A stretch of DNA of 53,281 nucleotides, counting the filler, from Streblomastix strix (taxonomy: Eukaryota), in the NCBI GenBank assembly GCA_008636045.1. It is 2 parts of 2 records of this genome, joined end to end, with 100 filler letters (N's around TTAATTAATTAA, not from the genome) between each part and the next. Parts side by side here need not be neighbours in the genome. Positions count along the whole stretch, not along the records: positions 1 to 26,600 come from SNRW01000161.1; 1 more part is not named here. One strand, given 5' to 3'. A program made the position numbers and the translations under genes. Below the pieces are notes generated by a model that was not told the DNA's origin, ran no database searches, and worked only from the letters and a program-made list of their open reading frames with translations. Positions 7,076-52,290 of this stretch are shown here, one piece after another (position 1 is the stretch's first letter; each line of letters starts with the position of its first letter).

Positions 7076-7171
<96 letters not shown>

Positions 7172-10100
7172 ATTATAATTATAATTACAGATTAAACTGT
7201 TTTGAACCTGTAGATTAAAGTAATGAAATGGAAGAATTTTAATTAAGAAATGGTGATTGTTTCTATTATTGTTGAAATTATTATTATTACTAATTAAAGT
7301 CATAAATTGCTTATTATGATAAATTATTGTCATTGTTATATAAGTTAAAATTGTGGTTATAGTTCATCGTTACTTAATTATTTGGGTCATATTCTTATGT
7401 GTCATCTTACTGCTATTAATTTTGTTAATGATACTATACTAGCTTTTGACTTATCTTTAAAATATTTGTTTATTGAAGTTATATTTACTGTTACTATTGC
7501 ATTTCCTGTTATTTTTAATAATTCTGGCTAGTAAATAAAGAAATTATTGGTATTTCTGATGTATTAATATGGGAAACATTTTTGTTCAAATTAATATTAT
7601 TTTTATTCATGTTATAATCATTAATTTCATATTGATTGCTATAGTTATCCTACATAATTATGTTACTGTTTGAAGTTCGTAATTTCGCTTATTATGTTTA
7701 TTAAATCTACTATTAAGAATTTTATGACTATTAAAGCAAAGACTGTGAATTAGACAATATTGAAGATGCATTTTATGATTATCTTCTCGATTAAGTTGGT
7801 GAGAAAGGTTCAATATTTGGATTAAGCCACAATCGAGGTATAAACGGAGTTGATTATTGAGAAGGAGGTTATGAACTAAATTAGATCTGAGATAAATGTT
7901 TTTGTAATGAACGTGAAGGAGAAAAAGAATTAGATGTTATTGAAAGTTTTATTTATTTGTTGGATGTATGTTTCTATTGGCTATCAGATGAATTGAAAGA
8001 GAATATTGTTCTTGGATCGGAGAAAAATGGAGTGTTTTAGAAGAATTAATTCATTTTTATTCTATTATTCATAATTTCGGTAGTGTTCTTAATTATTATA
8101 GATAATAATGAAGGATATGTTGAGGATTATTTTTTATACTCAACAAATTACAATTTTTTTTCTTCCTTCTTGTCTACATTATTCTCAATGTTTTTTTCAT
8201 CAATATTTTCTTTTTTCGTTTTATCATATTTCTCTTCATTATAATTGTCTATATGCTATTTGACATCATTTATTTGAGGTGAAGATTTCTAAGATAAAGG
8301 AAAATTTGATGATATTTTTGTATATTAAGATTAAAATAATAATGAATTTGAATTATTATCACTAAAAATTGTTGATTGATCGTTTGAATTTATATTACTA
8401 ATATTATTATTTACATGTTAATGAGTATTTGGTAGAGGTGGAAGAGAATTAATAGGAAATTATTATTATAAAGGTTATAAAGATTATTATGATTAAGTAC
8501 ACATTGAATATTATTAAATAACAGATGAAGAAGGCTAAGTTTAAGTAGGAATAGACGATTTACCTTATGATAAAGATGACGTTGATGCTAATCGAGAAGG
8601 AGAAGGGGAAGTTGATTATGAAGATAAAGATGGAGATTGAATTTGAGATTACTAATTTGAATTTGTTTGAATTTTGCTATTTTAAATTTTATTGCTGAAT
8701 TTCAATTCATGTTATTTTGTCTCTAATAACTTTTTTGCATACCATTTAAATTTTTCTTTAATTTGATTGTAACAAAAGCACGATCTAGTGACATTATTAC
8801 CTATATCTAGTGGATCTTCTATTATAATGCTATTTTCACTAGTTTAATATGAAGATGATTATTAAAAATTAATTTGTTACAATGTTGATTAAGATACTTA
8901 AGATTAAAATTAACTATTATTTGATGTTAAAGGTTATGAAAGTGATTAAAAAGCAAGAATTGCTTGAGAAGGAAATTGTTATTGAAATGTAGAAATTTGA
9001 TTTGTTTGATATGATTCAGATTGTATTAGCGGTGATTAATGAAGCAAAGATGTTAATTAATTTGAATTTGCAAAAGTCTGCTATTTATGCTGTTGTTAGA
9101 TTTATTACCAGGAAGTTGATGCAATTGCAGCCATTCTTTCGTTCATAAGTCTGCCATATTCATCAGATGAAATATATCTGCCTTAACCTCTGACGGAAAT
9201 GACATAATTGATTGATTTAAATCTTAAATCTTTTTCTTTTAATTTAGGTTACGCAATTTCTTCTTTTAATTCAAAATGTTTATCTAACTTTTCTTCATGC
9301 TTTTCAATTTTCTTTTCTACTTATTACTCATTATTTAATATTTATTATTCATTAGCTTTTTCTTAATTATTAATTTTTCTTTCTTGATTTTTATTAATGT
9401 CAATTTGTTATTCATTATCATTCAATTCTTCCTTCTTATTATCTATTTCTTCTTATTTCTATTCCTCTATTTACTTTTTTTCTTCATTAATATTCTTATT
9501 TTAGTCACAATTATTACTAATTTACAGTTTTTATGATTATATTTATGTTTAGTTTTATTTTTCTTAATTAAATTCAGTGATTTTCAACTCGTACTTTTTA
9601 GTATCATTTTCATTCTTTATAAAAGGCTATGGCAACTCATCGCATTCACCATACAACTAAAAAAACCTAATTAATAACTCACCGTATTCCACCTAATCAT
9701 ATTTAACTCCAAAGTTTCTTTCATATTACTGCAGATGTGATACTACCAGCAAAGCGAGACCATAACCCCCCATACCTCCTTTATACGGCTCATTAAGGCT
9801 ATTCTGAGCTAAGAATTGCTTTATGCATAATATAAGAGGCCGAGCTGCTGGGTATATAATCATTAAGCATCGAAGGTAGTCAGTGTTGATTATTCCTAAT
9901 TATGTGTATATGAGTTGGATTAAGTATTAAATAGGATAAATAAAAAAATTAGAACAAGAAAATGTAAAATAAAACAGAAAGTTTATATAAATATGAATTT
10001 AAATTAATCATTCATTCTACAAATAATATTATTTCTCATTCTTTCCATTATTTCATACCAGTCAAAGTTCCAAATCCAACATCCACATGAATATCAGTAG

Positions 10101-11922
10101 TCATATTCTAATTATTATTCTAATTATTACTTATGTTCAATTTAGTATCTTCACTATTATTAATATTCATATTCCCAGGAGTATCAACTATCTTAATAAT
10201 AGGAACGCGAGCAGTGCTTATGTAGTTAACAGTCCCAAAATATTTGCCTTAATTTAATTTGTCATTCAATTTCATCAAGAATTTTTTCTGCTCATCTTCT
10301 GGTATTATTGGTGAAGCAGGAAGTGTGAAATGAGGTGAAATGGAAATATCGTTCGAAAGTTGTAGGTAATCAAGTTGATTATTATTATTAATGAATTGAT
10401 TGTTTGTTTGTTTATTTTCATTGATTTTCTTTTTCTTTCTATTATTTTATTTTAATTACTATTTTTAACCATTTTTCTCTTTAATTTTTTCTTTTTAGAT
10501 ATCTTTTAAATCCTATTTTTTGTTTTCATCAATAAAGACATCTGCTATAGTTGGATTTTATAGATGAGATTAAATCTAATTAAAATTTATTTATTTCTAT
10601 TATTATCTAATCTAATTTTATAAATTTTGAAATTTGTTATTATTTTGTGAATTTGACAATTATTAATAAGACTGAGATAGCAAAGCAGGTAAATTGTTTG
10701 CTGAATGCGAATATTAAATGTCAATCTGAGATTATGATTATGAATAAAATGAAGAAGTCAATATTGGTTATGAGAAGTCAAGCATTTTCTATAAACTTGG
10801 TTTAAGTTGAACTCGAAGCAATGAATTTATCTTCTATTATGCTTCATTAGTTTGAATCAAAGTGTTTCCGTTTTGATGAAATGATGTTAACGAATTTTGA
10901 GACGTTTTCAAGTTGTCTTTCTGATTTGGATTTAAAGCATTACTTCTTTCAATTCGTTCATTCCAAGCTAAATTATTTGCTACTTAAACTGTTTGATATT
11001 GTTAACGATGGAATTATTGTTATTTTTCTTCAATTTACAGTGCAATGCTAATGTTGCAATCACATTAACGTTTGAAATTGACATTTCCGCATACTTTACA
11101 CACTGAAATGTTATATTAATCATCTTTTTCTTATTATAATTATTATAATTCCTATTAATCATCTTCATTTAAAGAAACTCTTTACAGCTTAATTTTTAGT
11201 TACCCCTTTTTCTTTTCATTCGCTATTTATCTCCAATTGACTCCAAGAAACTATTTTATTCCCATAATTGTATCCATCTTCTTCTATTTGAGTATTTCTT
11301 TTAACAATGATCTGTTTATCAACAATGATGATGGATATTTACTCAATCTTTCTTTCTCTACACTTAATACTTAATCAAACAAGTCCCCATACCACAGCTA
11401 GAATAAACTCCGGATGATTCGCTAAACACGTAAGATAAATTCACACTATTCTCCTGTTATCACTACAAGATCAACATCGCTTTATGGAAGTGACAGAAAT
11501 GATGAGAAAGATCCATATATAAATAATACTAATCCTTGTTGGTATGGCATATCCGATTGTTGTTCAACATACTCAATACAATTTCGAATACGTTCAACGA
11601 GGATAAATCGAGAAATGCACTCAGATTTGGACAATTGCATAAGTTGAAAATATTTCTACATCTCAGACGAAAGTTGTGCTTCAATAGTTCTTTCAATATT
11701 ATCTTTATCCTATGTTTCTGGCAAAATATTATTGGTATTCATAAGATTCAAAGTTTTAATTTTAGTTTCGTATGCATTTGAAATATCTATATTATCTCTA
11801 TATTCCAAGAATCTATAAAAAAACGATTTATTTGTCAGAAAGAATTTTGAGCGAGGAACTGCAAATGCGAATGGATATTATTCATTGAATTTAAACTGCT
11901 AAAGAATCGGATTATCTATCAT
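1485..11922 (-). CDS. Giant Trf4/PAPD5-like non-canonical poly(A) polymerase / nucleotidyltransferase (~3,420 aa, intron 9896-10058) with long Q/S/N/P-rich low-complexity regions
   Basis: Motifs YGSFSSFLSLPQSDVDLVV (~11470-11520), ISTARVPIIKIVD (~10200), IHVDVGF, RPLILCIKQFLAQNSLNEPYKGGMGGYGL (~9760-9845), YGELLIRFFQLYG and the PAP-associated IEDPLDIGNNVTRS (~8785-8825). The splice junction, IEDP motif, poly-Q tract and TGA at 1485 all share one frame. I did not check every codon of the tail. Confidence 0.8.
7077..7169 (-). repeat. (TAA)31 trinucleotide tract encoding poly-Gln inside the Trf4-like gene
   Basis: Pure TTA repeat on +; in frame with the flanking ...LQLQL-Q31-SSNLSANAN on the - strand. 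Confidence 0.9.
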
Positions 11923-13436
11923 TTACTGAATAGTTAAAAAAAATAATTAAAATTAATAATTTATTGAAGTATAAAACATGTTTTATTTAATATCTGTAAT
12001 AAAATCGATAAAATTAGTATTATTATGCATTTAGCGATGTAGATAATGTACTAAATTATTTGTACAATTAAATCTCTTTGTATAAAACAAATAATTAAAT
12101 CAAAAAGTAAGCTGGACATTTGTAGGTTTGTAAAACAGTTTTTCGGTCTTGTTTTCGTTTATTAAGCAGTTTTTTTGTTGTTTATTATCAGAAAAAGTAG
12201 CTAAAATTTTAGTTGAATATGCATATATATAATAACTAGCAATATGTGTTAAGTAAATTGATAATACAAGTTTAGTGCAATTACACACATAATACCTCAC
12301 CAAAACTGTTAAATTAATTATTTTTCTTAAGGTTATTATGTGATTTTAATAAATAACAATTAGTTTAGCCAATTATATTTAATAATTTTACTGCCACTAT
12401 TTAATCTAATACACTGTTCGAATATTCATGAATTTTATTGATGATTTACGTAATTTTATTGCAAATATCATCATTATATAATCTTATTAAATTGTTGTCT
12501 TATCTTTTTCCACGAGCCTGAAATTAATATATTAACATTTTTCTAATTTTGTACTAAATATTAACAACTAAATTCGCCAATTTATTTGATATATTTTAAA
12601 TAATATAGCTAGGGCGTCAATAGGGTATTTCATTTTTTTCCAGTGTTTTGCACATTTTTTATTGATTTTCTGTATAATTTGCTATAGATTAGATAATTTT
12701 GAGCTTATTAACTTTGAGCAAGTCTGAAATATTTGCCCTTCTGTTTACGAAATCAAATTTTTAGCGTGTAAATTTATTGCAAACGAGTTTTTAGCGTTTC
12801 CCATTTTTGATAGGGTAATTCATAAAAAATTGATGTTTTGATAAGTTTGATGTGATTTTGTTCGTAATTATTGTTGGTGAAGCTCAAAATCTAGCTCTTA
12901 AAGCTGTTTGAAGCCGAAATTTTCGAGTTTTATCTTCGTTTTAGTATTTTCGTGTTTTAGAGCTGTTACGTAAGATAATTTTAATATGATGTATATAAAA
13001 TAAATGAAAATATTATTGTCATTCAGTATTTACACTATCAAATTATAGTAACAAGATCATATTTTGATCCGATTTCTAAGCCAAAACAAAAATAATTTTT
13101 CAAATCCTATAATAATTACTGATCTTGATCTGATCTGATCTTGATCGGATCGTCAACTTCTCCAAATTTATTTATTAAAATTTTTTATCTCTAGAATCCG
13201 ATCTCGATCTGGCGGTTTAAAACTAATTTTAGAAAAATATGTCAATTATCGGTGTCGAACCTAAAACCTTAAAATTTTAATACTGACACATATCCACTAC
13301 TCTACAAGTTCGTGCACTAAAGAGTAAGCTATTAAAGTTAACACAAAAATAATATTTATATATATTAATGATCAAATTTAGCTGAAAATTGATTTATAAT
13401 TTAAAAATTCGGGTCTTCGATTTTTTTTATTTATTA

Positions 13437-13784
13437 TCAATTATCAAATTCTTCCTATATCATATCGTCATCTTTGTCTTTTGATATTAAATAATGAAAT
13501 TCTCTATAATCTTACCAATATTATTAGTATTCAGATCTTTTTTCGTAAAGAACAAGCATTTTAGGTTCTATAAGATCAATATATATGTTATATTATATTG
13601 GTTTTGGAAATTGCTTTGTAAATTATGTTTCTTTTCTCATATTTTAATCTCTTTTCTTCTTAATTTCTTCTAAATCTACTTAAGAATCGTATTTATGATG
13701 GTTTTCAATTTCTACAGCTATGCTAATTTAATTGTTTGTCGACGATGATGATGTTGAGGTCATTTCTTTTTGGTTGTCTTTCAT
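13437..13784 (-). CDS. Small hypothetical protein (115 aa) of the element, divergent from polB
   Basis: ATG 13784 to TGA 13437 is open with TAR=Gln: MKDNQKEMTSTSSSTNNQISIAVEIENHHKYDS...DDDMIQEEFDN. Confidence 0.55.
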
Positions 13785-13998
13785 AAAAAATTTAAATGTT
13801 TAATTAAATAAATAAGTTTAATAAAATTAAAAATAAAAATAATAAAAAATATGTTAAATAATTGAATAAAAAATAAATTAAATAATTTAATAATTAATAG
13901 TTATTTTTTTAAATTATTAAATTATATCTTAGTTAAAAATCTTTTTCTTGATCATTTTAATTTAAATAAAACATACCCAAAATTTTAAAATTGCATCG

Positions 13999-16900
13999 AT
14001 GGCATGTAATTATACTAGATAATAAGTGAATGAAATTGCTGGATTATTTGGGTGTAATTATTCAAGAATTAATTTATAAGCTGGTTAATTCTTAATATAA
14101 GTCTTGTTTTAAGAGTATTGCGTTGAAGAATCATATAATTACTCCCCTTAATTGATTTAGAAAATTATTGATGCAATATAATTAAAGCTTCAATAAGAAT
14201 AATAAAGAAAGTAAAAATTACTTGACGATTTTTATCAATGGGCTAATGAAGTAACTTCATAAGAGATAGAGTAATTCATAAAACCATCAAATGAAAAGGA
14301 AAAGGAAAAAGAAAAGGAAGTTCCAAAATAAATAACTTAGGAAAAAGAAAAAGAGGTTCCTTAGAAAAAAATATAAGAAAAAACTGAAATATAATTAAGA
14401 ATAGAAGAACATAATAGAGAAATTGAGGATTTACCTGCTGAATTTTTTGAAAAATTTACCAAACATGGCATAAGTTAGATGGAAAAAGATTTGCCAAAAG
14501 AATATGATAATCTGTAAGTTGCTGTTAAATAACCAATTGCAAAATAAAAAGTAAAAATAAAATAGTAGCGGTAAAAATAAAATCTAAGATTTGAATTAAA
14601 TATCCAGTTTATAGATCTAGTCTTTCACCATAATTTGTTAAAGAATCATTGAAAAGACTTGGTAAATAATCTGAAGAACTCTCAAATTATGCAGCATTAG
14701 AATTATGGTTGTTATAATTATAAACATTAAATTAATATTATTCTAAACTATCAACTGAAGCTCGAATTATTGGATTTTTAGATTATTCTATTCCGGATTA
14801 ACATTATGAACCAGATCTGAGTTTCTATTAACCATTATCATCAGAAGAAATATCAGATATTCATGATAGAATTGATAATCCACAAAGCAATAGTGAAATT
14901 AAAATATAAAAGGAATAACTTAATGATAAATATAAAAAAATTTACTAAGAATTTAATGATATTCCTGAAGAATAATTACAAACTTTTAAGATGGCTGATA
15001 AAGAAATAATTGCAGAAATATATCATTTTAATGATAAATAACTAAAATAAATAAAAATCGAAAGCTTAATTGACGAATAAGATAAATCACTTTTATTAAC
15101 TGAGCCAGTTAATTTATTGCAATTTTTATAATATTTGAGATCTGCAAGAAGATAACAACAACAGCAATTAAAAGAAATTAAAGGGAAAACTGATTAAGAT
15201 GGAAATGAACCAACACATACATATATAAACAATTAAATAACTTCATTGGAAGATATTCAAAAATTTATTAAAGAAGTTTTTGAAAAAGAAGAAGAAAATC
15301 ATTTTAAAATTGCTGTTGATTTCGACCATATAGAAGAATATTAAGATGTGACTCCTGAATGAGAATAAATATTAGAATATAATTCAAAATTTCCAAGGAA
15401 AAATTTAACTCTGTTGAATATTAAATCGCTTATTACAAGTTAAGAAGATATTGACACTTACGATAAATATATAGGAACAATAATTATCAATAATTAGGAA
15501 CAAACTGAAGAATTTATAAAACATCATTTTATTGCAGTATTCTCAATGATTGTTATAGCATATCGTATTCTATTTGCAGGTAAAGCTATTCCTGAGTTAT
15601 AGAAATTTATTAAACGACGTGAAGTTCATTGTGTTGAATCTCCAAATCCAATTAATTATTTCATTGAAGCATTATCATATTTATCAATGCCTGATTCGGA
15701 AACTAATCGTTACAGATCTTAAAATAGAGTTGCTGAAGGAATTAGATTTATAATTTAACATTACAGTTTATCTGGCAATTCTGCTAAGTGTAGAGATGTT
15801 TAAAATTTTCTTAATGATTTTAAAAGATTTGATTTACCAGCTGATGGTGAGAAAATTGCAAAAAGAATGAATATAAATATCTGTGTCTATGCTTATAAGG
15901 AAGATGAATAATGTAACTCTTTCTACTTAGATCATGTAATAAAAGCATTGAATTATATCTTAGACGAAAATGAAACTCAAGTATAAGAGCAAGATCCATA
16001 AAATTTTAATATACTACTTCTTCAATTTAAAAATCAAGCTCATATATTATTTGTTTCTGATCCAGAAACATTAACAGGTTAAAGATATTGTCCAATATGT
16101 AAGATTCATGGTATTATAATAAAAGATAAAAATTGTCATTCAGCAAGAGATTTTGAAAGGCATGTTGATAAATATAAGTTAAATAATGGCAAGCAAGTTC
16201 TTCTATCATCATCTCAAATACCATTTGCTCCACACATTTTTGGAAATTAAACATATATTCATCTATTAGTTAATGAAATGCTCGATAAATTTAAACCAAC
16301 TTAATATTATATTACGTATGATTTTGAGACTGTTGAGCGAAATATTAATAAATACTTTGGTAAAAATAGAGATGAAAAAGATGAAACTGGTTAAAAATTG
16401 AGTAATTCATTTTAAAATTCCATATTTGAACCATTATCAGTTGCAACTACAATTTAATATAAATCTGGAATTAGAACAATCTATTACGATCTTCATTAAG
16501 GACCAAGTTTCATTGAATAATGGTTAGAAGAAGTATTTAAAGCTGCTGAATAAATTAAGTATGATAATATGTATAATGATGATCCTGAAGTTCCATATGA
16601 AATTCCTGTTCCAGTTATTGGTTTAAATTCTTCTCATTTTGATATGATATTTGTATTACCATATCTTATAAATAAAGATTGGCACATAGTTTAAGGTGGA
16701 TATCTTGGTGATTTCTCTCATATTAAGCGCGTAGAAGTTATGCATAAAATAAGTAATGTTAAGATATAATTCTTAGATATTGGTATGTTCATGACTAAAA
16801 TGTCATTAAAAGAAGTTGCTGAATCATTTGGTGCAGGAAATAAATAAGATTTGAAAGGAATATTTACTTACAATGCATTCAAATACGATAATTATAATGA

Positions 16901-19208
16901 AATATTATCAAAATCTGAACCATTTGCATAAACTGATTTCCTAAACTTACTCAAAGAATAAACCTTATCTGATAAAGAGTACAAAATTTATCTCGATGAC
17001 TGCAAAAAATTTAAAACAAGATAGGAATATCTGTAGTATTAGAATGAATAAGATACAAAAATAATGATAAAACCTATTGATAAACTAATTTAAATGAATT
17101 TCAATAATGGCATTGATATGTTTAACTATGTTTCAGTGGCAAGTTGTGCAAATGCTATCAAATATAAGATTGCTTGTGATGATTTCTATTTAAATGCTCG
17201 TTATGAAAACAAATCAGATATTTTTCTTATTAATTATTAGACATTCAATTTAACTGAATAATACTGGGGAATTAAAGTAAAAAATTATAAAAAATATGAT
17301 ATTAAAGCTGGAAGAGATATCAAAAATAACGTGAATTTATCTGATTATGAGTACTTCAAATAATTACTTGAAAATGGATCTTGTTGGTTCTGTTAAGCAA
17401 GATTTACTAAAACTAATCTTCCAACTCTTGATAAAATTAATAATAAACTTGAACATTCGAAAGATAACGTTAGATTAGCATGCTTATATTGTAATATAGC
17501 TAGAGCTAATAGAGTTGATAAAATATCTCGATTAAAGATATAACTTAAAAGATATTATTTAGCAAAATAATTTCCAATGCCAATTACTAATGAGGAAACA
17601 TATCATGAATTAAGAAATGGAATTAATGGTGGATTCGCTTATGCTTTTCATAGATATAATATTTCAGGAATTACACATATTAATAAACTAAAGCTAGAAG
17701 ACTCAACGTTTGACGACGAAGGTAGGCATGGTAAGGTAATCAGTTATGATTTAGAACATATTATGACTCACATTATAGGATTTGATTTCAATTCTTTTTA
17801 TCCATTTGTCTACAGTGAACATTAACATGAATTAATTAGAAATACAGGTCATTAGATATATACCCCTAGGTATGAATTACTTAGAATTAATTGTGTAACT
17901 GAAAAAAAAGAATTGGGATTAAATATTATAGATAACCAATTAAGATTCTCTTTATAAAAATCTGATATTGATAAAGTAACAATGTTCGTAGCATCTGTTA
18001 AAGGTCATATCAATGAAGAATATCTTAAGGATTTTATTAATTGTCCTCCAATAATTTGGAAGTACAAATATAAATGCTTGGAATTCGTGATTGGTAAACT
18101 GATGTATGAGCATTAATTGAAAAATAATTTTCTAAAAGATAGAAATGAATGCAAATTAACAGTTTTATTATCAAAAATGGGTGAATATATGGATTTTTAT
18201 TCATAATGCTTATGGTTTTTTATTGATGATTGTCATTTCATAATTGATGATATCAAAAATATTAAGACATTCTTAAAACATATAGGATTTGCACCATTTG
18301 TTAAGCATTTCAGTAAATAAAGTCTCTCAGCAAAATTATCAAAAAATGCTGGATTAGATTAATACAGCAAAATAATTATGAATTCATCTTATCGTTCTGA
18401 TGGTATGAATTAAGAATATTTTACGGATGTTAAGATATGTTATAGAGATGATACATTTAGAGTTCATTTATATGACAAATTTAAATTTGATCGTAAGTTA
18501 GGCGATAATAACTATGCTGTAGAATATGAAAAATAGAAATTTTGTTGTAAGACTAGCTTATAAGTTGCATTTGCTGTATTAGATTGTTCCAAATATTGGT
18601 TTATGAGCATTTATAACAATTTCCTTTGCAAATGTATTGATTAATAACGTTTTAATGTTGTTTACTGTGATACTGATTCAATGATGTGTGCTGTTTCAGA
18701 TGATTCGAATTAAGATTATCGATAAGGATTCTCTGCAATAATTATTGATTAAAAATTTTATGATGAAAACTTCTATAAATTTTTTCCAGATCCTAATAAA
18801 GATATCTATAATGAAAAGAAATTACTTGGAGTTGCATATGAACATTGTGGTTCAAGTATGATTGCATTAGCACCAAAGAATTATTGGTTAGATTAGCCGT
18901 TTGATAAGAAAGAACCTGAAGTAATTATATTGAAAGGATTAAATTTAAAACTCAATCCACAAATTAATAAAGAAACATATATATAAAATTTCAAAGAAGG
19001 AACTGTCGTATAAGGTAAAAATAAATCTTTAAGAAAATATATAGAACATACTGATAATAATGAAATACTTAGTTGAATGAGTAGAATTGAAACATTTAAG
19101 AATGGTATTACTGGAACTCATACTAAAATGATATGCTTAGCAAATGGTTGTTGTTGTCCATTTATATAAAATCTTACAGCTGAAAATTATAGTATTGAAA
19201 ATCTATGA
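13999..19208 (+). pseudogene. polB: Protein-primed family B DNA polymerase (Polinton-type) with long N-terminal region, Zn finger and internal HNH; disrupted
   Basis: ExoI YITYDFET (~16310), ExoII GLNSSHFD (~16620), GINGG, motif A GFDFNSFYP (~17780), motif B KIIMNSSYRSDG (~18370), motif C YCDTDS (18663). Frameshift near 14560-14590; in-frame TGA at 14592, 15360 and 19074. Confidence 0.9.
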
Positions 19209-19253
19209 ACTATAGAAATAATCCTTTAATTTTATTTTTGATTTAATTCAAAC

Positions 19254-20672
19254 ATGTTTGACAACTGCGATGATTTTGGTGTTCCACGTAAAGGTGGTTA
19301 TTACTTAAGAAAATCATAAAAAAGAACCGAATAAGAAATTCTATAAGAATTTTTAAGTAGATATTCTGATAATTCTGATGAAAATCGAAGATAAAATGAA
19401 GTTGATAAATTAAAATTTATTGAAGATATGGCAGATCTAATGAACCTAGGAATTAAAGAGATACTTGATAAAAATAAATCATTAAATTTTGAATATTTCT
19501 TAGAAAAATTAAATTTACATGAATAGTATGAAGAATTACCAGTTATGAATAAATTTACAAATTTTATTAAAATTGGAGGTAAATCATTAACTAATTGGTA
19601 TAATGAATATATTGATATATTAGTTGCTAGGGGATAAAGAAGAAAACATATTAGAGAAGATATGAATGAAGGTAGAAGATAATTGAGATAAATTGTGGAA
19701 TTTCAATTCAAATCAAAGCAAAAATTAATTGAAAGAGCAAATCAAATTAAATTGCGACCATAAAATGATATCGATGAAAGAATAAATGTTCCTGATTATC
19801 ATATCAAATAATTACGGAAGAAATTTGGAAGATCTAACTTATCACAATACACTGATTCTTTTGAAATTGATTTAGTATTCTCGATGAATCCACTAATAAA
19901 ACACGTTAGTTAAATTTATTTATTCTGCATTAATATCTATACCAAATATCTTGTTGTATATCCTATTCGTGAAAAAACAGCAGAAGAAATTCACAATGCA
20001 TTAATGATTATAACAATTAATTTCAAAGTAAATTATATCAGAGGTGATGGAGAAAGAGGATTCACAGCAGCTAAGTTAATATAATTTTATAAGAATAATT
20101 AAAATTCTTTAATACACAGTTTCTTCATTGATAATGCAGCTGCTCCATTTACAAATCATAATAGAGTAGTAGATTCAGTGATAAGAACTATAAGAAATGC
20201 ATTCGGATTAAATGAAAGAGCATTTTTAAACAATAATTTAATGCAATTAATGGTTGAAATTTATAATAAAACTCCTCACAGCGTATTTAATAACTACTTT
20301 ACTGCAGATTAAGTGAAATAAAATGAAGATCTTGAAGAAATATTCATCAGAAAACATAATAAATAGTTACATGAATAAAAGAAAGTATAAGTACTTGAAG
20401 GATTACATAACTTTTAGCCTTTAAATATTTTAATGATTTATGTTGATTATTCTCGTACAGAACATTCATTTGCAAAATAAAGAAGAAATTTCAATGAATT
20501 GGCTGAATTTGTTAGTTATGATCATGGAAATGTTTGTTGTAAACCATTAAAGCTAATTAAAAAATTATATAGGATTGAAATTCCAATATATTACTGCAAA
20601 TATGTATGCAAAAATATTGAAGAATTATTTTCATCCAAATTTAAATATTATCGATAAGTATTCTTTATTTGA
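19254..20672 (+). CDS. Retroviral-like (rve / c-integrase) integrase, 472 aa, open frame
   Basis: FEIDLVF...YLFCINIYTKYLVVYPIREKTAEEI...IRGDGERGF...HNRVVDSVIRTIRN...YNKTPHS, the rve core pattern; ATG 19254 to TGA 20670. Confidence 0.85.
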
Positions 20673-20741
20673 TTAATTTTCTATCAATAATTTTTTTATT
20701 TATTTTTAATTTATTAATTTTTATTTATTATCAAATTACGT

Positions 20742-21086
20742 ATGCAAAAAGAAGAAATTTAAGAATTAATTATTTAAACTTTGGATGATTTATAGGCGAT
20801 ATCAATTAAAAAAGATAAAGATAAAGATAATGTCAAAGTTGATTCTCGAGGAAGAAAACATAAATATTAATCTGAAGAAGAAGCAAGAGAAAATCAAAAA
20901 TAATAGAGCAAAATAAGTGCTGCAAAGGCATCATTAAATATAAATATCTTAACATTGGACACAGATAAAGCAAATTTATTGAGAGATTCTTATAAATTAT
21001 GTCTGTAAAAAGTTAGAAAATATCATCAAAACTGGATTTAGGAGAGATTTCATCAAGAATTTTGCGTGCTGTATCATCTGGATTGA
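20742..21086 (+). CDS. Small basic protein (114 aa), possibly DNA-binding
   Basis: Open frame containing DSRGRKHKYQSEEEARENQKQQSK, an RGR motif followed by a charged helix. Confidence 0.55.
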
Positions 21087-21153
21087 TGTCAGTTTTATCT
21101 AAGGTTTGAACTAACAGTAATCAATTTATTTTTATTGAAAACACCGAATTAAA

Positions 21154-22479
21154 ATGTCTGACGGGGACTTACATATGTTAGATGTTGTCTTGAAACATGA
21201 TAAAACATTGTTTGGTTCAAATCGTACAAATACTATTGGAATTGTGGAATAAATCACAAACATCAATAATTAAATCAATAATATATCTTATGGGCCTGCT
21301 GGTGATACTTATTCAAGACCTTAGATTGATGAATTATTTGATGGCGAAGCTGACAAAACTGATCTTGATGAATATTACACTAAATCTGAATTTTATACTA
21401 AGGTTGAAGTCTATAATAATACAAAAGTTGATGAATTTCTTGATGAAAAAGCTAATGTAGGTACTTCATATTCAAAATCAGAAGATGATGCATTATTATT
21501 ATTGAAAGTAGATAAAACTGATTTTGATGAATATTATACAGCTGGATAGGTTGATGAAATGCTTGATGAAAAAGTTGACAAAACGTAATTGATTGATTCA
21601 TATTCAAAATCTGATGATGATGCATTATTATTATTGAAAGCTGACAAAACTGAGTTAATTGATTCATATTCTAAATCAGAGGATGATGCATTATTGTTGT
21701 TGAAGGCTGATAAAACATAATTGATAGATTCTTACTCTAAATCTGAAGATGATGCACTATTATTAGCAAAAGCTGGCAAAAACAGACTTTGAAAACTTTG
21801 TAGATCTGTACACAGCATAAACTATAACAGGATAAAAATAATTTGGAATAATTAGTGTATCTAGCATATCAAAACTTATTAAAAATGATGCATCAATATA
21901 TTACTTGCAAGTGGTGGTGATATATTAGTAATCTCTTTGGTTACATAACAATAATTATAAAAAGTCAGAGATATTGCATCAGAAAGATCAAAAGGTCATG
22001 TATTCGATAAATTATATGATATGAATGATTGGATGGCAGTTCCTGATAATGTTGCAACTTTGGTTATTGGAGATAATTTATATATAATTGATTCATCAGT
22101 TATGGATTATTGGTGGGATGGAACTTAACTTAGAGAATTAGAAACTTAACTTCCAGATTTAACTAATGTTGTCACAACACTTGGTGAAGCTACTGGAAGT
22201 GGAAATGCAATAACTGATCTAAATATAACTGGAAATATATTGACTCCAGCCAAAAATAAAAATTTCGTTGATTTAGAATACAATCAAACAATAAAATGTA
22301 TGTTTCTGCAAGTATGTCAACAATATATGTTAATATTACCATTTCAGTATGAGCTAATAAACTGGAATTAACAATATATGGCTGGAGGATTGCGCCATAA
22401 GGTTGATATCACTGATCCAATGAAAACGATAATTAAATATTATTTTTGTTTGATTCCAAATAATGACAGTATTTATTGA
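21154..22479 (+). pseudogene. Tail-fibre-like structural protein with 22-aa repeats; frameshifts near 21780 and 21900
   Basis: Repeats DSYSKSEDDALLLLKADKTQLI, then FVDLYTAQTITGQKQF, LLASGGD, GDNLYIIDSSVMDYWWDG, GSGNAITDL and FVDLEYNQTI. These motifs recall phage fibre shafts. Confidence 0.6.
21466..21780 (+). repeat. 66-bp coding tandem repeat (3 adjacent copies plus 1 upstream copy)
   Basis: GATTC starts at 21595, 21661 and 21727 (period 66); a related copy starts at 21466. Confidence 0.85.
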
Positions 22480-24093
22480 CGAAAAATTACTTGAAACTGC
22501 TGGATTAACTGATTTTCCAGAGTTATATGCTTATTTTAAAGAACTGGAACCAAAATCAAGTGAAGAATAACCATAATCTGTACCAATAGTTGAATAAACA
22601 TTATAAGATTAAGTTAAATAGAATGCTGCAATAATTAATGATGAAGAAAATGAATTTGTACTTCTACCAATTGAAAATATATAACCAAAAGTTGATTTAT
22701 AAGATGGACTTGAGAAAACAGAAGGTTGTACATGGTTGGTAAATTAATCAATGAAATAATTGAGTGTTTCAAAATAGAAAATTACTTACAATTTCTCAAT
22801 AAAAACAAAAAATATTTTCATAGATACATATTTGAAAATTGGCCTGAATATGCATAACTAAGATTGGAAGATAAGATTATTATAATAGTTGGATCAGATT
22901 CATTATAGGAGAATAATATATTCGGATATATTGATTAAAATGATCTTTATATTTCATTAGATGGAGATGAAGATATATAATCTGATATTACAATTATTTT
23001 ATCAGGTATTTATTATACAAAATATACACCAATTAAACAAGCACCATATGATAGCAGCAATGATAATAAATTGGACATTTAAGATTCATGGAATGAAATT
23101 GCTAAAGGAGGAGAATATAAGACATAAACTTGAGTATATGATACTGTAAAGCGTTAATCAAATATACTTGAATAAATATCATTAGGACCTGAATCTGCAA
23201 AATATAATTGACTAAGTAATTATTTATTAATTGATCCAGTTTCAATATATAGTTTTGATAGAGCAATGTTTTATTTGGTTGATGGACCACAGATAACATT
23301 TAATTTTAAATCTAATGTTAGTGATAATGCATTAAATTACTGTAAAGTTTTTCAAAAGTTCAATACTAGATTGCTGACATAAAAAACTAAATATTTTACT
23401 GCACATCTTTGTTAATAAGAATTTTATGCTCATATGGATGTGAAACCTAACGGATATGCCGATATATTTAATTAAAATAAGATGGAAGTGAAATTTAATG
23501 GATAGCCTGGTAATAGGGATGTAGAATTTGCTGGTACATATATTAATGATACTTATGTAAATCCTGATTCAACAGATTTTGAAGCAGCTAATAAAGCTTC
23601 GTCAAGAATAGATGAAGTGATAGCATAACAAGATAGTAAAGTAAAAATAGCACCATTATTTACTGATTACGCAATAACTGATTTCATAAATTAAGTATAA
23701 TTTGCTGATGATTTTAGAAACGGATAGATTGAAATAATTAATGAGGGTTATGTACCACCAACAATAATTAAAGACTGTACATTGTATCGAGTAAATGATA
23801 GAGTGAACAATTTAATTGTATTCAATTTTTATATTGAATAGTTTAATAATAATAACATAAGTCCAAATTTAATGCTTTATTGGTTACCTGATGAAATTGT
23901 TCCATTAACTAATAAATATTTCCCTTCATCATGCTATATAACTGTTCCAGCTTAATCATATTTTTATAAAAGATCATCAAGTTATGCAATGATAGATTCT
24001 GGTGATAAAGGGCTATATATTCATCTAAGTGATCCAGTATAGGATGTATAACGTGGTAAAGTTTATTATATTAGTGGAAGTTATTACATTTGA
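22463..24093 (+). pseudogene. Beta-rich putative virion / receptor-binding protein; frameshift near 22750-22780 and in-frame TGA near 23130
   Basis: Long TAR=Gln frame with recurring module endings ILSGIYY, FAGTYI and YISGSYYI-stop, suggesting repeated beta-sandwich units. Confidence 0.45.
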
Positions 24094-24174
24094 ACTCATT
24101 TCATTCGCAATCTAAAGAGATAAGTTTATAGTAATTTATTTTTGTTAAACCGAAACAAAAATACAACTAAAAAG

Positions 24175-24498
24175 ATAGCCATCGGAATCTTTCATAAAAT
24201 AAAATAATTAGCATCAAAAGTTGGCAAAGGATTACAATAGGTAAATGATAAAGTTGTTAAACCTGTAGTTCTTCCAGCAATGAAGTAATTTAGTGGTATA
24301 ATTCCTGTTGGAGGATTGATTAGAAAAGGAATAGAAACTGGTTCATCTGCACTTGATGCATTCTATGGATAAGGTTCATAATAAAACTTCAAAAAAAATA
24401 TAATGATTTACTAGAAGATACATACTTAAGAAATTTATCAATTGATTAACTAAGTCGATTAATAAAACTTAGAGGCAATTAATGAAACTTAAAAATGA
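24175..24498 (+). CDS. Small protein with N-terminal cationic amphipathic helix (candidate membrane-penetration protein); ATG absent, ATA at the expected start
   Basis: IAIGIFHKIKQLASKVGKGLQQVNDKVVKPVVLPAMKQFSGIIPVGGLIRKGIETGSSALDAFYG, immediately upstream of the putative MCP. Confidence 0.45.
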
Positions 24499-24556
24499 AT
24501 CTTAAGAATGACTAATGACGAAGTTAAGAGATTATTTTTTTCTTTCACAAATCAAC

Positions 24557-26269
24557 ATGATTCGTTTTCTAGCTAAAGCAATCTAAGTTCAAGGATTAAT
24601 TACAATTGAGTCATATCTTGAATCAAATGCAGTGTCTCCTTTCAAAAATGATGGAGAACATCACTATTCATTTAAGGAAATTAAACCAGAATCATAGATG
24701 TCAGCATTATTTGATAAAGAAATTATAGTAAGTTTATCTGACAGTGATCATGATATTACTCAGATATAGAATTCATTCTTATCAATTGTATTGACTGCAA
24801 ATCAATAGTTCGATAATAAGTTCGAATATTTTTATAATGCATATAAGAATGGAGTAGTTTTATTTGTAAGTTTGAAGTCAGAAAGTAATATAATTCGTGA
24901 ATATACTGTTTATCATCGAGGAAGAACTATTGATGGAAGCTTATTGAATGATGCAACAACTGAATCATTTATTTATAATACTATCAAGCCAAAGTCAGAG
25001 AAAAATAATAGAAAATATATTCATTCATTGTATGAAAATATCCATAAATTCGATACATCAGCATGTAGAATTTAAATAACAATGAGAGAAATTGAAGAAG
25101 CAACTGGAACATAAACAAATATACCATATTTGATGCCAGTTAGATTCAGAATTCCAGTTCTTTTTGATGATATACTTATATTCTCAGCATTTACAGATTA
25201 TCCTAATGGAATGTTTGCAGATCTTAAGATTAAATTCAAAATAAATTCAAATGCATTCGTATTTGCTTAAGTTAATCCAACAAAATCTTTAGTAAAATAT
25301 TATACAATGAATAAAGATGAGCTGTTGAGTTCAGAATAATAAAAATTGATAGATATTGATATCTTCTTCCGTAATTTGAGCTTAGCATTCTAATATACGA
25401 AATAATTTACATAACTTTGATGTACAGCAGATTTAATAACAAGTATCAAACCTGAAGAATTAACTTAAAGTGGCTAGAAAAATTTAATATGCGATATTAA
25501 TCCAGTAATAATTTCAATAAAAAATTACGTAATAACTGAAGTTACAGCAAATATTGCTGGATATAAAGCAAACGATACATGTTTGGCAAGAGTTAGAGAC
25601 TTCTTTACAACTAGAGCATTTGTAGTTCCTGCTTAGAGTGTTGAAATATGGCCATTCCCAACTTCTGCAACACATACAAGAATAAGAACTTCTTAAAATA
25701 TTCCATTATCTCATGTTACAGATATTGTATTATTATTCCCTAAAGATGCAAGATGTACTACATGCTTTGAAAATCTATGTTATTAAAATATGTAGTTGAC
25801 AACTTGTTGAAGAAATTTCCCAGATATACCAATGAATACTACTGATTAATAATTCTTCCATTTATAATAGAATGCTAGTACCTTAGATCAATTATTTGAA
25901 GCGAATGATGAATTTGAAGATGCATTAACTACTCCTAGAAATACTGCAACTAGAAGACCTAATCCTCATATAGATTTAACCTCATTCATGATTTCATTGT
26001 AATGCGAGAGAAATAGTAATGGAACTCTAATTTTAGATGGACTTGATGCAATGAATCAAAAAAGTTCTGTTGAATTAAGAGGTGCACAAATTTATCAAGG
26101 AATTACTGATAGTTATTATAACGTGGATACAAATGGAAAATGACCTCCTCCACCAATTCTATGTACAGTTCCTGATACATTCTGGTTACTTAGTCTTAAT
26201 CAAGGTGGTTCAGCCCATTATGATACAACACATTCATTTGATGAAGTTGTAGAAGAAATTGGAGTGTGA
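24557..26269 (+). pseudogene. Putative double jelly-roll major capsid protein (~570 codons) with three in-frame TGA stops
   Basis: Beta-strand motifs DITQIQNSFLSIVL, IIREYTVYHRGRTI and FRIPVLF...FTDYPNGMFADLKIKFKIN occur in the order expected for a DJR N-terminal roll. Size and position fit. TGA at 25418, 25808 and 26141. Confidence 0.55.
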
Positions 26270-26324
26270 TTATGAAATTAAAAAATAAATGAATTAATTA
26301 ATTATTTTTATTTTTATCTCAAAG

Positions 26325-26600
26325 ATGTAAGTTGCAGAAAATAAAAAGCATTTCATTATATCTGCAGATCTTACATAAAATGAATAGCATTCATTCCAAA
26401 GAAGATTACCTGTAGATTTCGTAAATTCATAGAATGAAAGAAAAATATTGTTTGTTTAATTTACAATTCCATGGAAAGTTAAGAAATGTTTCTATGATTT
26501 GAATTAATAAGAAGATCATGAAACAACTCCTATTTAATATATGAAGATATCATTTCATTCAACATTAGTTTAAGAAGAATAATATAATGAATAATATGTT
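26325..26600 (+). CDS. Putative minor capsid (penton-like) protein, N-terminal part only, cut by the gap
   Basis: MQVAENKKHFIISADLTQNEQHSFQRRLPVDFVNSQNERKILFVQFTIPW resembles the F-x-I-S...F-x3-LP...V-x-F-x-IP start of Polinton/PLV pentons; it follows the putative MCP. Confidence 0.4.
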
Positions 26601-26700
26601 NNNNNNNNNNNNNNNNNNNNNNNNNNNNNNNNNNNNNNNNNNNNTTAATTAATTAANNNNNNNNNNNNNNNNNNNNNNNNNNNNNNNNNNNNNNNNNNNN
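26601..26700. other. Assembly gap / contig spacer: 44 N + TTAATTAATTAA + 44 N
   Basis: Symmetric N runs around a linker that has standard-code stops in all six frames; artificial. Confidence 0.95.
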
Positions 26701-29700
26701 ACAGAAGAAGTGAATCAAGAGAACGATCAAGATCAAGAGTTTTTTCAAGATCTAAAGACTACTAAGATCCGATAGAAACTAGAATGGATGTTGATAGGAA
26801 TTAAAATGGATTTGAAACTAGAAACGAACCAAGAGGCAGAGCACGAGGAGCATATAGATGAAAGGAATATAGTTATTAAGGAAGGGGATAGAACTATTAA
26901 GACAGAGATCAATCGAATTAGGAAAGATATAGAGAAGCATAGAAGTATAACCCATATACAAAATAGATCTTCAGTCAGACTAAGAATCCAATAAACTGAA
27001 ACAGGAAGCACTAATATGATAATAGGAATTGATGAAAAGGCTTGGTCGAAAATCCAAATGACGTGCGGATAAAACGCACACAGGTGCAGAAAGATACACT
27101 TGAACACCATAGTGACAAAGACTCAACCTGGACAGAAGATGTAACCGTTAACACTTGGTAGCAACAGCACAACCCAAATAGCTTGTTCAACAAACACAAC
27201 GAATATAATAGGTACAAGTAATACCAAAATAATAGACCCTAGTTCAAATACCAAGATAAAGAAAGGGAGAAAAGACTAACCACCGAATCAAGATGACATT
27301 GACGAATAAGAAATAAAACAAGAAAGACTAGCTACCTTATAGAGAGAGAAGGAACAATACAATATATCTGATTCGGACAATGAGTTGCAACAAATAATTG
27401 AAGAAATAGATAATAACAATTTAGCACCCAAGTAAGCACAGAAATAATTATAGGAGATGATTTAACAATCAATCTTTAAATAAACAGCATAATTATAAAT
27501 ATATCAATAGATTGCTAATATTTAAGCTTAATAAAAGATAAATTTATCAACATAAAGGATGATTAGCACTAGAATGAACAAAGACAAACCTAGTAGCTAA
27601 ATACAAAGACCTGAAATACCAACTTAGGAAACTATTCATAGAGGAAGAGATAAATAAAGATAATAAAAAATGGAGAGAGAAGTATAAATGATACATGCAA
27701 GTTTACAGCTTTATCAATAATGATACAATACTCTCAACAACAAAAATGTTGATTTATACTGATATACAGGGAACTGTTGGATAGCTAACTGGTTTGTAGC
27801 CGAGTTCTGGTGCCCAGAACCCAGGCTTAAATGCAGGGCTGAAGCCAATTGAAGCGAGGTCAATATCGGCCAGTAATAGTAAAAGAACGGAATCTTAAAT
27901 GAATGAAGGTCATGACGATAATGCTGAAGATAAAGAAGACGAGTAAACCGTTAAAGCAACACTAATCCAAAACAAAGACTGTAGAGTTAATATAATCTCA
28001 TAGCCCCCAGTTTAGGAGAATCTGAGTTTATAATTATAAAATATTCAAGGCTTTAATGCTTTGAGTTAGATAAATAAAGATAATCGAGGCCCTGCACCAG
28101 TTGGAGTACAGGAGAAACCTAAGAAAGGGAAAGGTAGTAAATCAAAAATTTTAACAAAAAGCCTAATTGCCGTTAACGAACCAAGCTAGGGCAGCAATGC
28201 CCAAACTTCAACTTGAATAGCTTCCACAGTTCCAAAACCTAATGTTGCGCCAAAATGAAGTAGGTAAATAGCCGAATAAGTTAAACCCGAGTCAAAAAAT
28301 TCAAACGGTGAGGATAAATGGGAGTAGAGTCCCTTTTCTGACAAGTACACTCCAACCATGGGAGATCAACGTTAAAATCTCCCTATGGAACATAGAAGAC
28401 GAGGGCGCTTGTGAGGACAGCATTTCAGGAGATGGAGGAAAGGATTGGAGAATTGAAATATAAAGAAAAGGAGAATGGAACGGGAGGAAAAATTAAAGGA
28501 TTTTATATGCATGGAAACAGATAGGGAAAGAAGATTTCATAAACTCTGGATTTTTTCTGAGATTTAAAGATTAAACCAGTTAATAGAGATTAAAGGAAAA
28601 AGAAATGATAGTCCCATTTATTGGAACGAAAAAAGAGAAGGAAGCTTTCCAAGATATGTTGAAAGAAGAATTGGAAGAAGGAATAGTAATACCAATTTAA
28701 TAGGATCAAGTGAAATGGTGGAACCATACATTCCTGATAAACAAACTCAATAGGACATGGAGAAAAATTCTGGATGCTAGTAAGTTGAATAAGGAAATAG
28801 AGAATTTACACTTCAAGATGCTTGGACTAGGGGAAGTACAATACTTAGCAAACTAAATGGATTATGTAACATCCATCGACCTCAAATCAGCATTTCACCA
28901 CATCACAATATCTCCATACTCAATACCATACCTAGCATTTAATTTTAATAATAATAATTTCGCTTATAAAGCAGTGCCTTTTGGGACTAAAGACAGTCCA
29001 ATCTTCTTCGCAGAAGCAATAGAATCAATCCTTAGATAAATAAGAATACATTCAGAAATTAAAATTATGAACTACTGCGACGATATACTTCTAATCCATC
29101 AGGATAAACAAATTCTTAAAACACAAACAATAGAAATAATGAAAACACTGGAACAGTTCGGATGGACAATTTCAAAAGATAAATGCGAAATAGATTAGAA
29201 ATTGATAATAGCATTTATGGGATCGATAAAGAACCTGAAGGAAATTAATATATGAATGTCGGAATAAAGAAAGCTGAAAACGATACATGCATTGAAAGAG
29301 TTGTGTAACGCAATATATGTTAATATATACATAAAGATATGAAAACTAGTAGCGCTGATAGGTAAACTGAACTTCCATAGACTCCGGATAAGAGAAGCGT
29401 CTCTATATCTAGGAGAATTGGACAAGGCGAAGACGCAAACGTTAAAGACAAAATCTTAGGACGAAACGATGATAGTGAACAGGGGAATAATCAGAGAATT
29501 GAAATTGTGCATAAAGAGAATAGGGGATAACCAACCAAAGTCAGTGATTAATAAAATATTATCATGTATGATAACAACAGACTCATCACCACAGGGCTGG
29601 GGAGCGACACTGATATACGATAATCAAATAGAATTTATATAACATGACTTCTGGAGCGAAAATGAAGAAGAAATGACAAGTAACGCTAAAAAAATAAAAT

Positions 29701-29955
29701 ATATCTATTACAGGCTACTCCGTTTCGAGCAAGTCATCAAGATGAAGCAAGATCAGGCAATCTTGATACGTTCAGATAATACAACAGCAGTTTACGATAT
29801 TGGGAAATGGAAAGCGAAGGAATCCCTGAGAGGCAGAATAAAGCAAGTATTTTACCTAGTGAAAAGAATTTAACTACAAATTATAACAATCTATATCCCA
29901 GGAATATTGAACTCAACATCGGACTCACTCTCGAGACTGAGCAAATATGGGGGCT
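26701..29955 (+). mobile_element. Degenerate, truncated DIRS-like retrotransposon (gag-like low-complexity region plus RT-RNase H)
   Basis: Purine-rich upstream frames interrupted by TGA, then RT/RNH. No tyrosine recombinase or methyltransferase ORF seen downstream. Confidence 0.75.
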
Positions 29956-30002
29956 ATAATGTCCGCATTGCGATCTTCTTTTAAAATAGATGTAATGATT
30001 GA
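28482..30002 (+). pseudogene. DIRS1-type reverse transcriptase-RNase H
   Basis: GGKIK...WKQIG, WRKILDASKLN, SIDLKSAFHHI, VPFGTKDSPIFF, NYCDDILL, TTDSSPQGWGA, IRSDNTTAV and IPGILNSTSDSLSR. In-frame TGA near 29253 and 29340; the RNH Glu position reads K (SNAKKI). Confidence 0.85.
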
Positions 30003-51469: not shown

Positions 51470-52290
51470 TCTGAATATAAATAAGAAATAAATGTATTAA
51501 CAACACAAAATGTTAAATAAAAAGCAATGTTAAAAAGAATATATATATTAAAAAGAAAAATATTAAATCCGTAACAGGAATATTTGCGATTTTTAGTTTT
51601 TGAATTCGTTAAGTTTATAAGAACAATAAATATTAAAAAAAAGATTGAATTTAAAATATATGGAATAATAGATGCAAAAAATATAATAATTCAATTATGG
51701 TTTGCACCTTATCGAGAGTGAAACGCTCTTTAAATTCCAAGTTTGAAACTCAATTTTGCCTAAATACTAAACATAAAAATAATAAAGACACAGTTATTTC
51801 ATTTATCATTTTAAAATTTTATTTAAATTTACATTCAATATTATTTAAAGTTGTTAAATGATACGCATTTATAATATTACAAAATGTGACTGAACGACAA
51901 AACATTACACTAAGTTTATATATGCTGACTAATGAATTTAATCTATATAACTATCTCTCAAAAAATATACTTATTTCTAATTATAATCATTTCTTAATTA
52001 CTCGTTCAAAATATTTCTCATAATATCACTTCTTACAAGTGCTACAAATAATTAAATATAATTTTTACAAGTTTTTATAAAACTTCAATATTTTGATCAC
52101 TTAATTTCATACAAGTTTCATCATAAATTTAATCATATTTATCAAGGAAAAAACGAGATTTTTTCCTTAAAAAAAAAGCTCTTCTCAGCCATTCCAATAT
52201 ATATTGCACACAAAATTTCCTACTTTTTATTATTTCTTTTATAAATTTTTATTTTTTTATTCTTTTTTTTTATAAAAGAATCCAGATAAA

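Follow-up and report, generated by a model that had tools for sequence, protein, structure and literature searches.

Streblomastix strix carries a decayed Polinton-like endogenous virus copy that reads TAA and TAG as glutamine

We analyzed a window of 53,281 nucleotides made of two joined contigs of Streblomastix strix (GenBank assembly GCA_008636045.1). Positions 1-26,600 are one contig of this termite-gut protist, and a Polinton-like element occupies ~14.0-26.6 kb of it. Very probably, it is a chromosomal copy, since decayed, of the Metamonada-group Polinton-like endogenous virus of S. strix, which reads TAA and TAG as glutamine and whose intact members likely insert, replicate, and build capsids. 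The copy has the gene set, gene order, and genetic code of other S. strix copies, its major capsid protein (MCP) belongs to a published family, and most of its genes are broken. The original prediction of an endogenous Polinton-like element in an anaerobic protist is upheld by a protein-primed family B DNA polymerase (PolB), a jelly-roll capsid protein, and a tentatively assigned integrase; it had overlooked the decay.

The novelty once claimed for the element does not survive. Polinton-like endogenous viral elements (EVEs) of S. strix in the host code have been in print since 2023, and the window copy is a fossil. According to the text and tables of Bellas et al (2023, PNAS, PMC10120064) consulted here, S. 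strix EVEs use the host’s translation table and their MCPs fall in a Metamonada (MMN) group with Trichomonas vaginalis. The same source gives 820 MCP hits for S. strix, next to a value of 16.4 in a column, shown without its header, that we read as per cent of genome. The first 287 aa of the window MCP are 83% identical to KAA6401509.1, a member of that study’s confirmed MCP set, and host, MCP family, and the TAA/TAG = glutamine table are all the same; the window copy is decayed and shows no family-level difference. The label “probably undescribed” therefore falls, as both the family and its recoding are published, and KAA6401509.1 is a match to a described element close enough to remove the novelty. 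No gene-by-gene anatomy of S. strix elements appears in the text and tables examined, and Dataset S1 of that study, with its five maps of S. strix genomes, may already show the anatomy given here. Literature searches beyond that study returned no title devoted to S. strix elements.

The features on this contig are listed below, with related proteins designated by P numbers, metagenome loci by L numbers, and open reading frames abbreviated as ORFs:
13,040-13,220 (no strand): candidate left terminal region, proposed from its high GATC density and its short direct (tandem) repeats
13,437-13,784 (minus): 115-aa small ORF, open under table 6, putatively part of the element by position
13,999-14,652 (plus): charged ORF from ATG 13,999, likely PolB N-terminal extension, out of frame with the main frame
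14,595-19,208 (plus): protein-primed family B DNA polymerase in one frame, with in-frame TGA at 15,360 and 19,074
19,254-20,672 (plus): rve-like integrase with an open frame of 472 aa and 49% identity to P0097 in the C-terminal part of the latter
20,742-21,086 (plus): small basic ORF with RGRK motif, matching L064 and L065 by tblastn
21,154-22,406 (plus): fibre-like gene with 22-aa repeats (66-nt tandem array), TGA at 21,790, 21,886, and 22,350
22,463-24,093 (plus): second conserved gene, ~540 aa, beta-rich, frame change near 22,800, TGA at 23,131 and 23,209
24,175-24,485 (plus): small protein with N-terminal amphipathic basic helix, frame change near 24,390
24,557-26,269 (plus): double jelly-roll MCP, 570 codons, TGA at 25,418, 25,808, and 26,141
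26,325-26,600 (plus): first part of a small ORF that runs off the contig, placed by a profile of five relatives and its position after the MCP
26,601-26,700 (no strand): artificial linker joining the two contigs (N44/12-base/N44 pattern), with the element’s right part outside the window

Under the standard code (table 1), positions 13,437-26,600 hold a single ORF of at least 100 aa, whereas table 6 opens an array of plus-strand ORFs. The longest frame reaches 1,237 aa, whereas shuffling the region 200 times under an order-2 Markov model gave at most 595 aa, in line with the earlier statement that standard-code calling misses the array. That array had been described as intronless and same-strand. 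The first part stands: the intact relative P0095 aligns as a single colinear stretch over 14,970-19,190, so introns are unnecessary, and we rejected them as the cause of the gene breaks. The second part fails for the minus-strand ORF at 13,437-13,784, which had no match in Pfam and PHROG scans. At the candidate left end, GATC occurs 8 times in 13,000-13,200 against ~2 per kb elsewhere, and a 16-nt tandem repeat lies at 13,119-13,151. We found no long inverted-repeat partner for it in the window, which holds one element end, and no clear left edge in contigs aligned to the window. The supposed gap at 26,601-26,700, in which two runs of N44 flank 12 bases carrying stops in every frame, is a contig linker and no scaffold gap, since the database protein P0050 of this locus derives from a contig of 26,600 bases. 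Sequence past 26,700 belongs to the second contig and was rejected as part of the element.

The polymerase frame runs from a putative terminal-protein-like position through a vOTU-like Cys/His motif, exonuclease motifs, and an endonuclease VII/HNH insert (~17,380-17,490) to palm motifs A, B, and C (17,784; 18,369; 18,669). It matches PHROG 1907 (DNA polymerase, E 1.9e-10) and PHROG 1035 (endonuclease VII, E 1.1e-8), and its sisters P0094 (58% identical) and P0098 pass Pfam DNA_pol_B_2 (PF03175). The exonuclease and palm motifs align with ten homologues, and the frame is colinear with P0095 and P0100; of ten PolB homologues found by search, six are from S. strix; the endonuclease insert and the Cys/His motif are common to P0095 and P0099-P0101. 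Among homologues covering the vOTU-like positions, Cys is kept in 7/7 and His in 6/6. In the window copy the Cys position (15,657) reads Tyr, so that the catalytic Cys is absent; the His position is 16,041. Polinton polymerases have terminal protein (TP) and vOTU domains at the corresponding N-terminal position (Krupovic et al, 2024, bioRxiv 2024.03.18.585575), and S. strix PolB may carry the same pair. The charged ORF at 13,999-14,652 contains 28 TAR (TAA or TAG) and 2 CAR (CAA or CAG) codons, and its junction with the main frame is covered by no homologue found.

The integrase has two Asp motifs, and its third catalytic position is Asp instead of Glu, as in P0097. The RGRK ORF, whose product is likely DNA-binding, has matches in L064 and L065 (E 0.002 or better) when compared with a database of 18 metagenome loci. 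PDB sequence searches with MCP, PolB, and integrase returned nothing meaningful, nor did a Pfam scan give a meaningful match for any element ORF in the window.

A search with the MCP against proteins 504-2,000 aa long gave 64 homologues, all from S. strix, and a wide library yielded 545 representatives at E 0.001. We modeled the sister MCP P0001, whose four best VIA matches are all double jelly-roll capsid proteins, those of African swine fever virus (p72), orf virus (D13-like), mavirus, and faustovirus (Z 5.3-6.1, root-mean-square deviation 4.5-6.2, 152-190 aligned residues, first barrel only). For a sister S. strix MCP, a Foldseek match to the Sputnik MCP at E 2.6e-12 is published (Bellas et al, 2023). 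In Pfam scans, none of 50 MCPs matched DUF4106, the T. vaginalis MCP family, and IMG/VR scans, with 25 and 66 pattern matches, turned up no relative of the MCP.

The small ORF at 26,325 likely encodes a minor capsid protein of penton type with a single jelly-roll, as judged from weak homology and from the modeled fold of a relative. It scored best of 1,068 window segments against a hidden Markov model of five small MCP-adjacent metagenome proteins, and a small ORF occupies the same post-MCP position in L068, L070, and L071. The L071 protein was modeled as a beta-sandwich (pLDDT 74) that matches chains of EhV-201, the STIV turret, PBCV-1, the mavirus penton, and Sputnik at Z 6.1-7.1; unrelated sandwiches reach the same scores. 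Its best BFVD match is an adintovirus protein, with an E value of 1.6e-3 that lies above the 0.001 Foldseek cut-off. A homologue search with the 91-aa ORF itself found nothing among 7 candidates. L074 (2,924-3,622) and L075 (2,400-3,062) have a second beta-rich ORF of 221-233 aa adjoining the small jelly-roll; it has no Pfam match, and the two families do not align with each other. We take it to resemble the classic Polinton minor capsid protein, in which case these relatives may have two.

Between the RGRK ORF and the MCP lie three further genes. The fibre-like gene changes frame near 22,293, where ~465 residues of its sister P0055 are missing according to tblastn. P0055 matches the T5 L-shaped tail fibre entry 8hqz_d (E 6e-5) and tail-fibre PHROG 10305 (E 5e-4), in agreement with the earlier call of fibre-like genes. 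The second gene is 78-82% identical to P0055 and 25-49% identical to other copies, always lies between fibre and MCP, and found no match in family scans (Pfam, PHROG, others); from its head-domain pattern we presume that it is a second fibre or spike. The third encodes a predicted membrane-active peptide, whose amphipathic helix has a hydrophobic moment of 0.63 (rank 13 of 3,911 element windows) and whose homologues adjoin the MCP in 4/18 loci (L069, L072, L079, L081) and in S. strix copies. It may resemble adenovirus protein VI or the products of adintovirus cupiennin-like genes. Adintoviruses encode membrane-active genes (Starrett et al, 2021, PMC8502044). Fused gene models from other S. strix copies repeat the series fibre, second gene, peptide, MCP, and also the adjacency of PolB and integrase.

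Decay is evident across the copy. Ten premature TGA codons interrupt it (PolB 2, fibre-like gene 3, second gene 2, MCP 3), and tblastn shows three frame changes (near 22,293, 22,800, and 24,390); we infer one more near 14.6 kb. In a quick tree, the MCP has an end branch of 0.14, compared to 0.0015 for P0001. Of 220 residues invariant across 12 sisters, 25 are altered in the window MCP; the corresponding count is 0/194 in P0001, P0068, and P0085, and 1-9 in eight other sisters. Near-intact sister MCPs exist, with identity up to 99%. The database protein P0050 is 99% identical to the window locus, and the gene models P0050, P0055, P0037, and P0052 splice around decay stops, falsely fusing fibre, peptide, and capsid genes.

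Element genes read TAA and TAG as glutamine, as host genes do and as was originally predicted. Over 3,980 element codons, TAR makes up 213/258 glutamine codons (83%), against 463/661 (70%) in four host ORF stretches (Fisher p 9e-5). This higher share accompanies a lower GC content at third codon positions (GC3; 0.15 versus 0.20), and we therefore read it as AT pressure and not special selection. The sister proteins from S. strix already owe their sequences to table 6 and so cannot test the code independently; for that purpose we aligned 46 distant capsid relatives against the window MCP codons. Two columns with glutamine in 98% and 96% of these relatives are TAA and TAG in the window. Glutamine is the commonest residue facing the MCP’s TAR codons (248/913 cells, 27%), compared to 3.5% facing unrelated codons. 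At family-conserved glutamine columns, 15 of the 19 glutamine codons are TAR, which is too many for decay at 14% protein divergence.

Several results weigh against our reading of the element and of its genes. The integrase identity depends, weakly, on the sister P0097, whose aligned part matches rve (PF00665) at E 0.0019, which misses the cut-off; the window protein had no family match of its own in Pfam, PHROG, and further profile scans. The P0001 capsid model is poor (pLDDT 39), and Foldseek with it gave no match at E 0.001. The penton call leans on weak homology at E 0.023 and on Z scores shared with unrelated beta-sandwiches. Two sister MCPs are altered as much as the window copy at invariant residues, P0022 (23/217) and P0029 (60/254, a distant subfamily). 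When four distant PolB homologues are aligned, Lys faces TAR codons most often (18%), with glutamine second at 10% over a background of 2%. No ATPase-like Walker A motif was found in the element’s sequenced part, the 18 short loci, or 288 proteins (four pattern matches among the searched sequences all lie inside capsid homologues), and no adenain/Ulp1-type protease among the ORFs scanned, on a contig that ends inside the element. Terminal inverted repeats and target-site duplications were not seen in the window, where one element end is present.

These packaging results bear on the best-surviving alternative, which is that the element is a capsid-bearing but non-infectious transposon that spreads within the genome by integrase and PolB and has no packaging ATPase. 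That no ATPase or adenain gene was found from the candidate left end up to where the contig stops fits this idea, as do the high copy number (820 MCP hits) and the lack of an IMG/VR match to the MCP. However, MCP, fibre, amphipathic peptide, and small jelly-roll stay together both across S. strix copies and among distant relatives, intact sister MCPs are up to 99% identical, and the element’s right end lies outside the contig, so the ATPase result covers just the sequenced part. We consider such a transposon unlikely, and a linear plasmid or capsid-less element was rejected given the MCP.

That the copy is intact, its stops and frame changes being assembly errors from the collapse of many near-identical copies, is very unlikely. 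Short-read EVE assemblies do show such artefacts (Bellas et al, 2023), the best sequencing run contains only 45% of sampled words, and the contigs covering PolB and integrase add up to depths in the thousands. Yet at the PolB stop at 19,074 the window letter is carried by contigs with a summed depth of ~19, like several single-copy flank bins (12-21), while other copies differ there, and a 422-base contig of depth 15 matches 13,473-13,894 exactly; these depths come from one sample that is possibly the source of the assembly and hence not independent. Copy collapse mixes sister alleles, and would therefore not alter 25 of 220 residues invariant in all sisters. The open integrase frame strongly fits neither decay nor assembly error. 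Finally, the view that no code was adopted, and that TAA and TAG are stops produced by decay once the element had inserted into an AT-biased genome, is almost certainly wrong: the copy is decayed and AT-rich with a TAR share above the host’s, but that share goes along with its lower overall GC3, 213 TAR codons stand against 10 premature TGA, the capsid column test with its TAR codons at deeply conserved glutamine columns already refutes this view, and the MCP frame of metagenome locus L073 has 14 TAR codons and zero TGA.

With the element read as a decayed virus copy in the host’s code, its relatives speak to the direction of recoding. Our metagenome scan yielded 18 loci (L064-L081, 1.3-4.4 kb each) from 217 pattern matches, and recoded relatives were findable because the search patterns contained no glutamine. 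Their MCPs are 26-44% identical to the window MCP, and their neighbours likewise include a small jelly-roll, an amphipathic peptide, an RGRK ORF, and a fibre, although gene order and strand vary and 17/18 are in standard code. These 17 have CAR-coded MCPs, of which 16 lack in-frame TAR and one has a single TAR codon; where a CAR-coded locus shows its MCP stop, the stop is TAA in 13 of 14 cases. The sole TAR-coded locus, L073, has an S. strix-type MCP. In a quick midpoint-rooted MCP tree of 45 rows (the window copy, 10 S. strix copies, and 34 full-length sequences of the 150 representatives listed), a branch with SH-aLRT support of 100 separates the 11 S. strix MCPs, among which the window MCP is nested, from the other rows. 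Since all but one of the 18 metagenome relatives are in standard code, the change of code likely came after entry into the host lineage, and the simplest reading of these sequences would be one recoding event in the oxymonad lineage. A single event is weakened as a conclusion by table-11 protein databases, which hide other recoded lineages. Two observations concern neighbouring genes: a standard-code ORF that looks like a bacterial glycoside hydrolase by eye adjoins the TAR-coded MCP in L073 (705-1,079, minus strand), a possible chimera or host transfer, and an HNH-like gene, also by eye, directly precedes the MCP in L069 (901-1,527, minus strand). A separate IMG/VR scan with PolB gave 63 loci whose similarity is confined to the surroundings of the endonuclease insert, and these were set aside.

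T. vaginalis, whose Maverick-Polintons offer one comparison, uses the standard code. These elements also have PolB and integrase, and their MCPs are ~32% identical to S. strix MCPs (Bellas et al, 2023, Table S5). They carry KilA genes (10.1101/2024.03.23.586382), while the window has no KilA-N match. The T. vaginalis MCP falls outside the maverick-polinton clade (10.64898/2026.10.13.758929), parabasalid polintons have been linked to gut giant viruses in the egovirus preprint (10.1101/2024.03.23.586382), and Metamonada elements are still ungrouped in a 2026 preprint (10.64898/2026.06.19.733378). A code-6 giant virus genome has also been reported (PMC13524828). Animal Mavericks, Polintons, and adintoviruses (Polintoviricetes) have a PolB with an OTU-like N-terminal domain, an rve integrase, double and single jelly-roll capsid proteins, and membrane-active accessory peptides (Krupovic et al, 2024; Starrett et al, 2021), for each of which the S. 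strix element has a counterpart or a candidate. In contrast to Polintoviricetes, the S. strix MCP is unrelated in sequence, no adenain or FtsK gene was found in the sequenced part, the penton-like protein of the element’s relatives is only 130-180 aa, and the element has long phage-like fibre repeats.

Intact members of the family would insert into the genome by integrase, copy themselves with the protein-primed polymerase, and assemble fibre-bearing icosahedral capsids. By analogy with polinton polymerases (Krupovic et al, 2024), the vOTU-like domain may release the terminal protein that primes replication. The single jelly-roll protein would close the capsid vertices, the fibres would bind a receptor, and the amphipathic peptide would breach a membrane. 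As for history, a standard-code ancestor may have entered the oxymonad lineage, its genes would have come to terminate on TGA, and AT pressure would then have turned glutamine positions into TAA and TAG.

Host genes to the left of the element encode coatomer epsilon and a Cid1-type poly(A) polymerase, as identified by family scan. The latter, Cid1/Trf4-like (1,485-12,030, minus strand), has very long Gln/Asn/Ser-rich extensions and includes a run of ~37 TAA codons at 7,076-7,187. On the second contig, and outside the Polinton, a broken reverse transcriptase (PF00078, E 2e-20) is followed by an RNase H-like frame (28,065-30,002, plus strand); from its motifs this looks like a DIRS-type retroelement. 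A host multi-membrane protein (32,753-39,736, minus strand) has a TmcB TPR domain that passes the cut-off (PF25474) and a C-terminal hemerythrin-like domain that misses it (TIGR02481, E 1e-5), and could possibly be an oxygen or redox sensor in this anaerobe; its gene contains a 23-aa tandem repeat at 37,677-38,246. A seemingly host-specific gene family with a common 58-nt acidic motif (repeat family D9) occurs at 30,148-32,055, near 44,683, and at 51,862-52,974, and two of its three members were scanned in Pfam with no match.

Our analysis provides a gene-by-gene map for a group that the 2026 preprint calls ungrouped, together with a candidate penton, entry peptide, and vOTU domain, and with standard-code relatives that indicate the direction of recoding. 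It also carries a warning, as database gene models such as P0050 and P0055 splice around decay stops and fuse viral genes. Spread of the family is likely limited to hosts that read TAR as glutamine, because its genes would be truncated in standard-code cells. A bolder proposal, which we regard as quite unlikely, is that the S. strix family remains active as a code-locked virus from an unplaced lineage, with near-identical intact capsid genes, a minimal stand-alone penton, a protein-VI-like entry peptide, and packaging without a recognisable A32 ATPase or adenain. If so, it would be a natural experiment in recoding after a host jump, with the standard-code gut-metagenome sisters as the “before” state.

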